IMG/VR virus record: IMGVR_UViG_3300013372_001213
Direction: 5' to 3' (one strand)
Origin: an uncultured virus (IMG/VR IMGVR_UViG_3300013372_001213)
Taxonomy: Duplodnaviria > Heunggongvirae > Uroviricota > Caudoviricetes
DNA: 56,307 nt
In this document: in pieces, positions 103-5,699 of the stretch
Numbering within the stretch: the stretch's first letter is position 1
Layout of the letters: every line of letters begins with the position of its first letter
Program-made: the position numbers and the translations under genes
The notes under the pieces: model-generated
Told to the model about the DNA's origin: nothing
Seen by the model: the letters and a program-made list of their open reading frames with translations, nothing else
The model's database searches: none

Positions 103-157
103 ATTGCCTATATTTATTTCTAGGTATTTCGTCTCCTATAAGACTCATCAGGGCAAT
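103..157 (-). ncRNA. Type I hammerhead ribozyme
   Basis: Minus strand reads AUUGCC-CUGAUGA-GUCU(UAUAGG)AGAC-GAAA-UA(CCUAGAAAUAAA)UAUA/GGCAAU: intact core, 6-bp stem I, 4-5-bp stem II, short stem III, AUA cleavage triplet (cut between 109 and 108). Confidence 0.85.
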
Positions 158-432: not shown

Positions 433-475
433 TTCTTTTGAGTTGGTTTTTAGATTGGTTAAACTTATATAAATT

Positions 476-561
476 ATCCTAAGCACTTGGTTGTAACCTG
501 TGTTTGTTATACAGGAAGTCATTGCTTTTATATAGCATTTACAACCTTGTGCATTAGGAAT
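476..561 (-). ncRNA. Structured element copy A (three-way junction)
   Basis: AUUCCUAAUGCACAAGG-UUGUAA...UUACAA-CCAAGUGCUUAGGAU closing stem with two internal hairpins (UGCU/AGCA, CCUGU/ACAGG). Confidence 0.7.
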
Positions 562-620
562 TTAAATCTATACTCTTTCTTTGTTCTTTGGTATGTATTG
601 ATTAGTATTTCACCAGTTTT

Positions 621-733
621 ATCCTAAGCACTTGGCTATAATTGCCTATACAGATTAATTTCTGTAGGATAGGTTTCATATACCACGCTTGGTATACTAC
701 TTTTTTACAATCATAGCCTTGTGCATTAGGAAT
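621..733 (-). ncRNA. Structured element copy B (three-way junction)
   Basis: Same 17-nt and 15-nt ends as copy A; different inner stem (CUAUGAUUG/CAAUUAUAG) and different hairpins (UAUACCA/UGGUAUA, UACAGA/UCUGUA). Confidence 0.7.
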
Positions 734-2495: not shown

Positions 2496-2565
2496 TTGAG
2501 TAGGTGATAATGTATTTTACATAATATACAACCTTGTATATTAATTAACATTATCAATCTAAAAA

Positions 2566-2605
2566 ATGGGTTACAAAAAGAAATCAGGTTAAAAAAAGAA
2601 ATCAG
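2566..2605 (-). promoter_or_regulatory. Repeated cassette promoter motif (doubled)
   Basis: CTGATTTCTTTTTGTAACCCAT at 2566-2587 plus a second partial copy at 2587-2605. Confidence 0.7.
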
Positions 2606-2646
2606 TAAGGAGCAACAGTCCATGTCCATGTCCATGTCTATAAAGA

Positions 2647-2679
2647 AAAAAAAGAAGAGGCTATAAGCCCCTGTCTTTT
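2647..2679 (-). terminator. Intrinsic terminator
   Basis: AAGACAGGGGC/GCCUCUUCUU hairpin plus U tract. Confidence 0.75.
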
Positions 2680-2681
2680 AG

Positions 2682-3005
2682 TTAGATACAATCCACAGTT
2701 TCTTTGGGTACATCAAATTTTCCCCAGTCTTCATTAGCACAAGCTTCTATCAAAAACCTTTCCTGTATAAATTCTATACAAGCTTCAACAGCATCAGCTG
2801 AGGTTTTGTCTGTGCTCTGTGCTATCTTTAATAACTGGTTTACCAAAGGGTCTACCACATTATATGTAGAAGCATAAACTAATTTCTTAGCATAATCATT
2901 TAGCAATTTCTTTGCTAAGCTAGCAGGCATTACTGCTAAGTCTTGGTTTTCTACAACAAAGTCCATTGCCTTGTTAACTGTAAAGTCTAATGTTACATTT
3001 TTCAT
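2682..3005 (-). CDS. Hypothetical protein (cassette 6)
   Basis: 107-aa ORF between promoter motif and terminator. Confidence 0.85.
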   Translation of the reverse strand: MKNVTLDFTVNKAMDFVVENQDLAVMPASLAKKLLNDYAKKLVYASTYNVVDPLVNQLLKIAQSTDKTSADAVEACIEFIQERFLIEACANEDWGKFDVPKETVDCI

Positions 3006-3033
3006 AATAGATAGTTTTTAAGTTTGAGATTAA

Positions 3034-3057
3034 TAATGGGTTACAAAAAGAAATCAG
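3034..3057 (-). promoter_or_regulatory. Repeated cassette promoter motif
   Basis: CTGATTTCTTTTTGTAACCCATTA, 28 nt upstream of the ATG at 3005. Confidence 0.7.
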
Positions 3058-3088
3058 AAAAGAAAAGACAGAGCTATTGCTCTGTCTG
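3058..3088 (-). terminator. Intrinsic terminator overlapping stop codon
   Basis: AGACAGAGC/GCUCUGUCU hairpin plus UUUCUUUU. Confidence 0.8.
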
Positions 3089-3283
3089 GTTCTCTGCTGC
3101 ACTTAGTTGATCTTCAATGTAGCTTTGAAGATAGTCTCTGAATTTTTCAAGACCCCAAGATTCATTGCCTATAGCCTGTGCAGTTTCAAAACTCAATGTG
3201 CTATCATTTCTGATAGTTTCAGAGTTCATACTGATTTCAGCATCAAGCATCTTGATGATTTGCATTACTGTTGTTGTGTCCAT
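3074..3283 (-). CDS. Hypothetical protein (cassette 5)
   Basis: 69-aa ORF between promoter motif and terminator. Confidence 0.8.
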   Translation of the reverse strand: MDTTTVMQIIKMLDAEISMNSETIRNDSTLSFETAQAIGNESWGLEKFRDYLQSYIEDQLSAAENQTEQ

Positions 3284-3304
3284 AGTTTATATATTTAAAG
3301 TTAA

Positions 3305-3327
3305 TAATGGGTTAAGATAGAAATCAG
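3305..3327 (-). promoter_or_regulatory. Repeated cassette promoter motif
   Basis: CTGATTTCTATCTTAACCCATTA. Confidence 0.7.
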
Positions 3328-3357
3328 AAAAAAAAGAGAGATATACTCTCTCTTTTT
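3328..3357 (-). terminator. Intrinsic terminator
   Basis: AAAGAGAGA/UCUCUCUUU hairpin plus U tract. Confidence 0.75.
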
Positions 3358-3358
3358 A

Positions 3359-3565
3359 TTACAGTTCATATCTACTGTTGAACTGTTCTTGTGTAACCTG
3401 GTCTGTAGGTATACACAAGTTAAAAGCAACTTCTTCCACAAACTCCTGATTATCAGGGTTATGGATATTGTCAGCCCATTTGGGGCATGCATCTACACTA
3501 ATGTGTTTTCCTACTGAGCAACTAGCTAGTGTAAGAGCTGTTGCAATGATTAGTAATTGTTTCAT
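3359..3565 (-). CDS. Small lipoprotein (cassette 4)
   Basis: MKQLLIIATALTLASC signal peptide with lipobox. Confidence 0.8.
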   Translation of the reverse strand: MKQLLIIATALTLASCSVGKHISVDACPKWADNIHNPDNQEFVEEVAFNLCIPTDQVTQEQFNSRYEL

Positions 3566-3585
3566 AATATATAGTTTAAGTTAAA

Positions 3586-3606
3586 TGATGGGTTATAAGA
3601 AATCAG
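3586..3606 (-). promoter_or_regulatory. Repeated cassette promoter motif
   Basis: CTGATTTCTTATAACCCATCA. Confidence 0.65.
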
Positions 3607-3611
3607 ATTAC

Positions 3612-3645
3612 AAAAAAAGATAAAGGGCATAAAGCCCTATATCTT
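3612..3645 (-). terminator. Intrinsic terminator
   Basis: AAGAUAUAGGGC/GCCCUUUAUCUU hairpin plus U tract. Confidence 0.8.
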
Positions 3646-3835
3646 ATTCCAAATGTCCATTGGGTTTATCATAGTCCCAATTGTTTCTTTCTATAATAGA
3701 ACCATTAGGTGCCATTACATATGTTCCTTCACACTTATATACATAAGGTACATATTGTTTAACAGATGCTTCAACTATGTTACTATTGTTCACATAGTTA
3801 GGTGCTTGCACAAACCCAAAGATTTTATTTTCCAT
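3644..3835 (-). CDS. Hypothetical protein (cassette 3)
   Basis: 63-aa ORF between promoter motif and terminator. Confidence 0.8.
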   Translation of the reverse strand: MENKIFGFVQAPNYVNNSNIVEASVKQYVPYVYKCEGTYVMAPNGSIIERNNWDYDKPNGHLE

Positions 3836-3852
3836 TGATAGTTTAGGTTCAA

Positions 3853-3876
3853 TAGTGGTCTAAAAAAAGAAATCAG
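3853..3876 (-). promoter_or_regulatory. Repeated cassette promoter motif
   Basis: CTGATTTCTTTTTTTAGACCACTA. Confidence 0.65.
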
Positions 3877-3891
3877 AAACACACAGTAGAT

Positions 3892-3920
3892 AAAAAAAAT
3901 AAGGGGATAACCCCTTATTT
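3892..3920 (-). terminator. Intrinsic terminator overlapping stop codon
   Basis: AAAUAAGGGG/CCCCUUAUUU hairpin plus U tract. Confidence 0.85.
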
Positions 3921-4202
3921 ATGCTTGGCAATTAGGTCATAGAGATAGTTCTTAACTCTTGAGTTAAGAGTAAATCTACCACCAAACAGAACTCTGGTTT
4001 CTTCCTTATTAACGTGGAAGGCTAAGTCTTCCTTTAAGTCAGGTAAAACCTTTCTGAACTCCATTACAATCTTTCTTGCAGAATCTATCTTGCAAGAAAA
4101 TTTAATATCATAATAGTCAGTGTCTTTAATAGGTAATGCTTTACCATAAGCTTCAATTGAATTAAAATATTCAAGAGCTGTGTTGTGATTGTAAGTTTTC
4201 AT
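3915..4202 (-). CDS. Hypothetical protein (cassette 2)
   Basis: 95-aa ORF between promoter motif and terminator. Confidence 0.85.
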   Translation of the reverse strand: MKTYNHNTALEYFNSIEAYGKALPIKDTDYYDIKFSCKIDSARKIVMEFRKVLPDLKEDLAFHVNKEETRVLFGGRFTLNSRVKNYLYDLIAKHK

Positions 4203-4230
4203 AAGTTTAGGTTTTAAGGTTTAATGTCAA

Positions 4231-4254
4231 TAAGGGTCTATAAAAAGAAATCAG
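4231..4254 (-). promoter_or_regulatory. Repeated cassette promoter motif
   Basis: CTGATTTCTTTTTATAGACCCTTA. Confidence 0.65.
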
Positions 4255-4268
4255 ATTACATAGTAGAT

Positions 4269-4299
4269 AAAAAAAAGAACAAGCCTAAGCTTGCTCTTT
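4269..4299 (-). terminator. Intrinsic terminator overlapping stop codon
   Basis: AAAGAGCAAGC/GCUUGUUCUUU hairpin plus U tract. Confidence 0.8.
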
Positions 4300-4554
4300 A
4301 TTTTTATTGTTAAGTACATATATAGGTATCAAGTATCTAACAATCATTCTATGATCATCATTAGTACTATATATATCACCATCCATAAAGTATGGAACAA
4401 AGGAGAACTTAACAGCTACACTATCTATCATCACAATACCTTTTATACCTTTACAGTCTTGGATATTGTTGATGATATAAGGACTTGCTTCAAAGCAAGT
4501 CATACCAGTTGTTACTTCATTGATGTTGTCACACAAGATTACTTCTATTTTCAT
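4285..4554 (-). CDS. Hypothetical protein (cassette 1; MKIEVILCD...)
   Basis: Track ORF 4285..4617; start moved to ATG at 4554, downstream of the promoter motif as in the other cassettes. Confidence 0.8.
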   Translation of the reverse strand: MKIEVILCDNINEVTTGMTCFEASPYIINNIQDCKGIKGIVMIDSVAVKFSFVPYFMDGDIYSTNDDHRMIVRYLIPIYVLNNKNKEQA

Positions 4555-4581
4555 AAGTTTAGTTTTTAAGTTTGATGTCAA

Positions 4582-4605
4582 TGATGGTCTAGAAAAAGAA
4601 ATCAG
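4582..4605 (-). promoter_or_regulatory. Repeated cassette promoter motif
   Basis: CTGATTTCTTTTTCTAGACCATCA. Confidence 0.65.
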
Positions 4606-4932
4606 AACACACAGCATGTTCTTCTGTGAGAAAAATCTTTTTTTGTAGCCTAGTTTTGGAAATGCTAGCTCAGAGCATGGGGGGTAGGGGCTTCAGGCAC
4701 TGGACCCGGGGGGGTTGTTTTATAAGACCCCACTCCTTCTCACATATATATTCCAACCCCCACCTATATATTTACTCCCCCACCCAAAGTCTTCCTCCCC
4801 CAAGATTGTAACCCACAAACTATTGTTGAAAACTTTATGATTGTTTCTCTACATACCTATGAGATCTTGTTGTATCTTTATATCCAGATTGTTTGATTGC
4901 TCTCTGATTGTTTTGATTTCAAGGTTCACATC

Positions 4933-5009: not shown

Positions 5010-5699
5010 ATGGAAATTAAGAAAGTACCATTAGAAAAAGATGAATACTATAATGAGATCTTTGAGAAAGATACTATATATATTCATCATACTGCAGGTA
5101 GCCACCGGCCAGATTGGACAGTTGCCTGTTGGGAACATGATAAGAATAAACAAGGTTTAATATTAAAGGTTGCCACAGCTTATGTTATTGGAGGAATATC
5201 TACCAGAGATTCTAAAGATGTTGCATGGGATGGAGTAATAGTAAATTGCTTTGATGATAAGTTATGGGCCCATCATTTAGGAAGTACCACAGCCAATAAC
5301 TCAATACTAAATAAGAAGTCAGTTGCCATTGAGGTTTGTAACTATGGTCCTTTGGTAAAAGGTAAGGATGGTAACTTCTATAACTATGTTAAAGGTATTG
5401 TACCTAAAGAACAAGTGACTACTTTAGATAAACCTTTTAGAGGACATATATATTATCATTCATACACTACCAAACAGATTGAAAGTTTAAAATGGTTGTT
5501 ACAAGATATTGCTAGAAGAAATCCTAAGATTAATCTTAAGAAAGGATTGCAAGAGTTATTAGGAAATGATGATGCTTTTGAACTTAACCAAGCTGCATTA
5601 AAAGGTTATCCTGGTTTATGGAATCACACCAACATAAGAAAAGATAAATCAGATATGTACCCACATCCTGAATTATTAAAAATGATAGCAGGTTTATAG
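5010..5699 (+). CDS. N-acetylmuramoyl-L-alanine amidase (endolysin, Amidase_2-like)
   Basis: IYIHHTAG, WAHHLG, N..SVAIEVCN and WNH...KDKSD zinc-amidase motifs. Confidence 0.9.
   Translation: MEIKKVPLEKDEYYNEIFEKDTIYIHHTAGSHRPDWTVACWEHDKNKQGLILKVATAYVIGGISTRDSKDVAWDGVIVNCFDDKLWAHHLGSTTANNSILNKKSVAIEVCNYGPLVKGKDGNFYNYVKGIVPKEQVTTLDKPFRGHIYYHSYTTKQIESLKWLLQDIARRNPKINLKKGLQELLGNDDAFELNQAALKGYPGLWNHTNIRKDKSDMYPHPELLKMIAGL

Follow-up and report, generated by a model that had tools for sequence, protein, structure and literature searches.

A canonical type I hammerhead motif linked to a conserved, predicted pseudoknotted RNA in a crAss-like phage genome

The purpose of self-cleaving ribozymes in phages is described as an open question (PMC6765202), and several known systems offer points of comparison. 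Among the type I hammerheads reported by Perreault et al., weak stems III are very common, phage copies flanking variable genes cleave both in vitro and in E. coli, a halovirus copy maps to the 5' end of a phage transcript, and the processing of polycistronic RNA was proposed as a role (PMC3088659). Hammerheads that depend on dimerisation also exist (PMC6765202), for instance in Penelope-like elements, the newt and ASBVd, and these are characterised by tandem copies and by a stem III loop that is palindromic and extremely short (PMC6765202, PMC3088659). In gut phages, theta ribozymes are paired with tRNAs (PMC10879173).

Here we compare with these systems a locus in a 56,307-nucleotide stretch of DNA from an uncultured virus (IMG/VR record IMGVR_UViG_3300013372_001213; hereafter the window), which forms the second half of a virus record that is complete at 118,307 bases and has direct terminal repeats. 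Judged by its proteins, the source genome is that of a crAss-like phage, because its terminase shares 22-24% identity with those of the crAss-like phages cr1_1 and cr55_1 and of Flavobacterium phages, and because PHROGs matches were found for portal, major head and virion proteins; the host presumably belongs to the Bacteroidota. The sequencing runs that held at least half of the sampled words (7 of the 21 listed) were freshwater, lake or unlabelled metagenomes, a habitat reading that leaves out the low-share runs X17-X20. The surroundings of the hammerhead consist of small minus-strand genes, and a 40-base repeat occurs in eight copies at window positions 2551-4608, at a spacing of about 270-450 bases and each time before such a gene; these repeats are likely phage early promoters or leaders. 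There is no tRNA in the window. Approximately 4-6 kb downstream of the motif, one tRNA gene was found with Rfam (L001:11949-12022, minus strand), together with a 214-aa frame (L001:13137-13781, minus strand) whose product we take to resemble a GIY-YIG homing endonuclease.

Four distinct alleles of the cassette, i.e., the hammerhead and the RNA behind it, were compared, namely those of the window and of loci L044, L181 and L224, with repeated alleles counted once (L045, L180, L182 and L222 carry that of L044, and L225 that of L224). One core-pattern scan matched 12 loci, two of them the cassette (L057 and L059, on the contigs of L045 and L044) and ten unrelated, further scans returned the cassette at 2 of 38, 4 of 20 and 3 of 3 matched loci, and pattern scans of bacterial genomes and of cultured phages gave no match; on these yields, after merging of repeats, the cassette family comprises four distinct alleles. 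A descriptor match in L283 was dropped as a chance hit, having very long loops and stems of 3-4 bp. The loose core pattern was unspecific in five related genomes, in which it shows one stem-bearing copy in G001 and G002. The neighbouring genes of the alleles are 62-81% identical in protein.

The motif was delineated by descriptor, alignment and RNAalifold at positions 157-103 of the minus strand, the strand to which all window coordinates of the cassette refer. The 5' strand of stem I (157-152, positions 2.6-2.1) pairs with 108-103 over 6 bp, with one compensatory change in L224, and is followed by the catalytic core C3-A9 (CUGAUGA, 151-145), invariant in all four alleles. Stem-loop II (144-131) is closed by the G10.1-C11.1 pair and joins 144-141 to 134-131 in four base pairs plus a U-G; behind it stand G12-A13-A14-A15.1 (GAAA, 130-127), likewise invariant, and stem-loop III (127-110), a 7-bp hairpin with a GAAA loop at 120-117, whose positions 113-114 are mismatched in the window only. 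A15.1 and U16.1 form the pair 127/110. From the hammerhead consensus (PMC3088659), cleavage is predicted after A17 (H17 = A109), between 109 and 108, so that G108, with a 5'-OH, would be the first base of the 3' product.

The complete CUGAUGA...GAAA core named in the original prediction is thus present and perfect. All positions of the core consensus taken from Perreault et al. (C3 U4 G5 A6 N7 G8 A9, G12 A13 A14 A15 and U16 H17; PMC3088659) agree in four of four alleles, and the pairs next to the core in the window are those required (G-C at 1.1-2.1, G-C at 10.1-11.1 and A-U at 15.1-16.1). L044 and L224 have U-U at 10.1/11.1, a variant reported as active, while the strain of run X2 has G-U in place of G-C (window 131; L001:18132), which adds a second weakening variant to the population. 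The type I descriptor has a single match in the whole 118,307-base genome, and none of 200 dinucleotide shuffles gave a match with equally long stems, a stem-length threshold that was chosen after the match had been seen; a looser descriptor found 0.09 matches per shuffled genome. Among the four alleles, which are 57-84% identical over the hammerhead, 5 of the 17 pairs of stems I-III have changed on both sides, with compensatory changes in all three stems, and RNAalifold finds the three-way junction unaided. Folded in isolation, the motif is no more stable than shuffled sequence (z 0.00).

The Rfam covariance search that had been proposed as a check gave no family at gathering score within the window and only sub-threshold matches at E up to 10, the best hammerhead match being a partial Hammerhead_3 (16.8 bits, E 1.2). 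A type III reading based on that partial match was rejected, as the stems of the alignment are mostly mismatched. Since Rfam models are family-specific, the miss excludes those Rfam families and not the ribozyme class. L181 aligns weakly to Hammerhead_HH9 (RF02275, 17.0 bits) and RAGATH-1-hammerhead (RF03152, 26.7 bits), far below the gathering scores of 52 and 56.3, and its stem I flanks UUAC / UGC line up with the HH9 internal loop; the UA that precedes stem I in the window (159-158) also matches an HH9-type stem I internal loop. Unlike in HH9, there is no conserved outer helix closing the internal loop, and the window copy gave no match to HH9 at E up to 10. Three helices surround the core, stem I is open and the arrangement is backed by covariation, and with the core consensus, the shuffle control and the compensatory changes across four alleles, both the hammerhead identity and the predicted cut site at 109/108 are supported. 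As far as sequence comparison reaches, the motif is a genuine but ordinary canonical type I hammerhead.

Compared with the hammerheads of Perreault et al., in the accessible part of that paper (PMC3088659), the locus shares the full core consensus, the open stem I, the position at a phage intergenic site by variable genes and the tolerance of U-U at 10.1/11.1. It differs in being a single copy, whereas those occur in clusters, in having no loop II pseudoknot with the 3' tail (here the tail is invariant and loop II varies), and in its fixed fusion to a conserved structured RNA of 100 bases, which that part of the paper does not describe. Four pairs between loop II and the 3' tail are possible in none of the four alleles; the 5' flank can form four pairs with loop II in three of the four, compared with about 30% for a random 7-mer against those loops, and no tertiary contact was pinned down in the four alleles.

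The RNA that cleavage would release had been singled out in the original prediction, and it is indeed the most conserved part of the cassette: identity among the four alleles is 76-96%, while the 5' flank reaches 23-46% and the four-fold sites in the neighbouring gene 46-72%. Recent exchange, rather than selection, could account for the 96% identity between the window and L181. The predicted product (108-9, approximately 100 bases) continues after stem I with a single-stranded tail (102-95) that is invariant in all four alleles, followed by hairpin 1 (90-62), which has a 6-bp stem, a 1x3 internal loop, a 3-bp top and a nearly invariant 7-base loop, and shows one compensatory change. Positions 61-10 are predicted to form an H-type pseudoknot, in which S1 pairs 61-58 with 50-47 and S2 pairs 55-51 with 14-10, and whose long loop holds a 12-bp hairpin (45-19; 100% paired, with three compensatory and three one-sided changes). 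S1 has one compensatory change, and S2 two changes from U-A to U-G and one broken pair (all in L224).

Taken over all parts of the cassette, pairing holds in 96.2% of 186 cells, and both sides have changed in 10 of 47 pairs; none of 500 column shuffles reached these values and slid partners paired at 36-44%, although the structure tested was derived from these same four sequences. In the 3' RNA, four of the five compensatory changes come from L224 alone, and variable columns are no rarer among the paired ones (16 of 60) than among the unpaired (7 of 34). With four alleles, changes weighted towards L224 and paired columns about as variable as the others, the pseudoknot stays a prediction; RNAalifold by itself picks its second helix. 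The 3' RNA matches no Rfam family, and its covariance model, run on 769 kb from 88 sources, matched only behind the hammerhead, with one copy in its own genome and presence in two of five related records. The preQ1-II riboswitch (RF01054) has a similar layout, with a hairpin at the 5' end and behind it an H-type pseudoknot in which a further hairpin is embedded; the likeness is topological only, and RF01054 had no match in the 3' RNA at E up to 10. Just past the predicted cut, an invariant 6-base palindrome AUGCAU with an AUG lies at window 104-99 in all four alleles. A short peptide beginning at the AUG four bases past the cut was considered and rejected, the frames being unconserved (22 codons in the window and 15, 15 and 5 in the other alleles).

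The 3' RNA stands behind the hammerhead in all four alleles, while the position of the whole cassette varies. The window and L044 share the order of a 103-aa, a 91-aa and a 306-aa gene, and the cassette occupies the second gap in the former and the first gap in the latter, directly behind a stop codon both times. In all four alleles, the distance from the predicted cut to the 306-aa coiled-coil gene downstream is 163-638 bases (172 in the window), with a different gene 139 bases on in L044 and about 640 mostly non-coding bases in L181. The coiled-coil gene, of no known family, is located just outside the window (L001:16620-17937, minus strand; genome approximately 60,620-61,936), and at least 113 relatives of it occur in viral contigs. 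The sequence behind it is conserved and structured and has phased UUUG hexamers, as also seen in L044-L047, and RNA contigs cover the gene and this sequence at a depth of 15-24. As only 4 of 80 examined loci of the coiled-coil gene have the cassette, the gene does not need it. Many of the 16 loci scanned have tRNA arrays upstream; hatchet ribozymes lie near homologues of the gene at L047:1299-1433 and L236:2306-2437, and a GOLLD RNA, a group I intron and a tmRNA near others (L228:6528-6942 and 5274-5461, L246:5950-6338). The region is a place where several RNA-processing elements alternate.

Further structured or coding elements were observed around these loci. The gap that holds the cassette in L044 is occupied in the window by two long hairpins that share their ends and differ in their interiors (474-733, minus strand), and L093 also has two such hairpins (1501-1612 and 1936-2103); the interior of the first hairpin ends in TAGGCAAT as the hammerhead does and has a GAAA junction without CUGAUGA. 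Hairpin-packed non-coding stretches lie beside the cassette in L181 (1890-2430, minus strand, about 540 bases) and L224 (3005-3790, about 780 bases, holding two hairpins with shared ends), neither with an Rfam match at E up to 2; Rfam likewise gave nothing over the 1 kb upstream in L224. The phage contig of L046 is 434 kb long and includes a tRNA array; behind the coiled-coil gene and its RNA it has a 526-aa gene (L046:4333-5913), whose product presumably resembles a TROVE/Ro60 protein.

Stem III of the window copy had been described as only three A-U pairs; it proves to be a 7-bp hairpin interrupted by C-A mismatches at 124/113 and 123/114. In the contigs of all three DNA runs that cover the site (X1, X2 and X3, from three studies; run X6 has no cover there), both 113 and 114 are G, which closes the stem, and the relatives have fully paired stems of 6-7 bp: L044 a 7-bp hairpin with a GAAA loop built from other base pairs, L181 the same 5' strand as the window with a fully matching 3' strand, and L224 a different 6-bp hairpin. 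The computed stem III energy is +3.6 kcal/mol in the window vs. -6.4, -6.1 and -4.8 in the relatives, and its pairing probability in minimal folds is about 0.01 vs. 0.98-1.0, the orphaned 5' strand of the window mispairing with loop II. In folds of 181 bases of context, stems I or II were often misfolded in L044 and L224. Under the inclusion rule of Perreault et al., which allows no multiple mispairs in short stems, the window copy with its two C-A mismatches would be left out, while the three covering runs and L044, L181 and L224 would be kept, which lowers the claim of activity for the window copy and not that of hammerhead identity for the lineage. Since the runs and relatives have the full stem and none of the data sets compared supports the letters of the window at 113-114, the window copy appears to be a private two-base variant or an assembly error, predicted to misfold and thus to be slow or dead. 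In plus-strand terms, CC has become TT in tandem. Such a change is the classic ultraviolet signature, and a single event proves nothing.

Transcripts were assessed in the contigs of four RNA runs, none of which spans the hammerhead core. Contigs from X15 and X16, both from one study, extend over the 3' RNA and end 16 and 12 bases before the predicted cut is reached, without a loose end at that point. The upstream gene has no RNA cover, to which no weight is given here. Because contigs cannot show ends and short ones (160-200 bases, depth 3-7) occur all along the region, these contig ends are only a weak hint of cleavage. A search for sigma-70 promoters and terminators on the cassette strand found nothing useful.

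The reading that we favour, with slightly more confidence than doubt, is that the alleles with a full stem III cut as monomers, and that the 5'-OH and the compact fold slow decay from the 5' end and uncouple the coiled-coil gene from the genes upstream. The portable hammerhead and 3' RNA cassette would cut a phage early transcript, in strains with a full stem III without a partner, so that the downstream message would start with a 5'-OH end and, behind it, the predicted pseudoknot. This RNA would then be guarded from decay that depends on a 5'-monophosphate, and the coiled-coil gene with its trailing RNA would be separated from the upstream genes. RNase E is less efficient on a 5'-hydroxylated substrate, while its direct entry bypasses the 5' end (PMC4191395); the decay argument derives from E. 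coli, whereas the host is presumably a member of the Bacteroidota.

The theta ribozyme-tRNA pairs of gut phages (PMC10879173) resemble the locus in that a small self-cleaving motif is fixed beside a structured RNA in a phage; they combine an HDV-like ribozyme with a tRNA cargo, and here a hammerhead is combined with an uncatalogued RNA that is predicted to be pseudoknotted. It is possible, and we put it forward tentatively, that the hammerhead is the dedicated 5' maturase of this RNA and that both act as a joint portable cassette which feeds or regulates the coiled-coil protein and the hexamer-repeat RNA. If true, this would be the hammerhead counterpart of a theta ribozyme-tRNA pair, with a new cargo RNA.

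A free small RNA of about 100-175 bases that acts alone, e.g., as a protein-binding decoy, with the hammerhead as its 5' maturase, seems rather improbable. The constancy of the 3' RNA behind the hammerhead, whatever the next gene, would suit such an RNA, and so would the near-identical CAUUC in two of its loops, but one CAUUC is taken up by the predicted pseudoknot. Similarly, the X15 and X16 contigs span nearly one and the same 160-base interval and end at the next start codon, as a released RNA might; these ends, however, coincide with a strain difference at L001:17933 and come from one study, and there is no terminator-like site behind the 3' RNA on this strand.

We consider it unlikely that the cassette is a largely neutral passenger, spread by recombination between A-rich early-gene spacers, with cleavage tolerated and copies decaying. 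Its patchy presence (4 of 80 loci) and changing gap, the predicted broken stem III of the window genome and the G-U closing pair of run X2, and the other ribozymes and tRNA arrays in the same region of other relatives are what one would expect of a passenger. Against this speak the compensatory changes in stems of seven to twelve bases and the invariant core, among neighbours that are only 62-81% identical, as well as the single copy and the lack of a mobility gene.

A translation-coupled switch, in which cleavage would be controlled by a ribosome that terminates on the UAA over stem I and thereby blocks or times the folding, is very unlikely. That stem I begins in the stop codon of the upstream gene is true of the window: the gene (432-157, minus strand; about 91 aa, no known family) was listed as a 121-aa ORF from 522, its L044 homologue begins at the equivalent of 432, and A157 is the last base of its UAA (159-157), so that positions 2.8-2.6 are part of the stop. 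Neither Pfam nor PHROGs gave a match for this gene, and none of 50 candidate relatives of the 121-aa frame in viral contigs was confirmed. The stop of L044 is placed three bases earlier and comes from another gene, and in L181 a 107-aa frame reads through the core and stops in loop II. This repeated proximity would favour a switch, as would the 17 of 33 unrelated phage type I motifs in which a frame of 45 codons or more has its stop ending 4-12 bases before C3 (42 unrelated viral loci with a similar core gave 35 distinct motifs, of which 33 fit type I, under a search pattern biased to GCC before the core). The register, however, differs in every allele, L224 has about 770 bases between the motif and the last credible gene, and L181 has UAC instead of a stop before stem I. 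In addition, UA(A/C) directly precedes stem I in 24 of the 33 unrelated motifs and matches the HH9-type internal loop. With 17 of 33 unrelated motifs having it and registers that differ among alleles, stop overlap is common in phage hammerheads and not conserved in register in this lineage; it may partly be a by-product of a structural UA motif and compact genomes.

Scarcely plausible, finally, is the original suggestion of a minimal stem III hammerhead that dimerises through a palindromic CUAG loop, to which the window copy lends its type I layout, three uninterrupted stem III pairs and a self-complementary CUAG (-4.4 kcal/mol), but which is countered by the full stem III of 6-7 bp in the three covering runs and three related alleles, by the single descriptor match in the complete 118-kb genome where dimer-dependent hammerheads occur in tandem, and by the CUAG itself (123-120), which consists of three bases of the stem III 5' strand and the first loop base, lies off-centre in the 18-base segment, forms a self-duplex of only 4 bp out of register with stem III, is missing from L044 and is of a kind found by chance (45% of genomic 12-mers hold a 4-base palindrome), so that no dimer is needed.

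What is new, in a modest sense and as read from the aligned alleles, is a conserved and covarying 3' RNA that is absent from Rfam and fixed to a hammerhead; a description of the cassette was not found in the literature searched, a scope that left subscription papers and motif supplements outside. The locus also carries a caution, since the striking weak stem of one assembly is a two-base private variant. Its value lies in the cargo, as a conserved structured 3' product occurs in four 5' contexts and with natural full-stem and broken-stem alleles, and the 150-base cassette would therefore be a small and cheap system in which to test a protected 5' end against the release of a functional RNA in phages.
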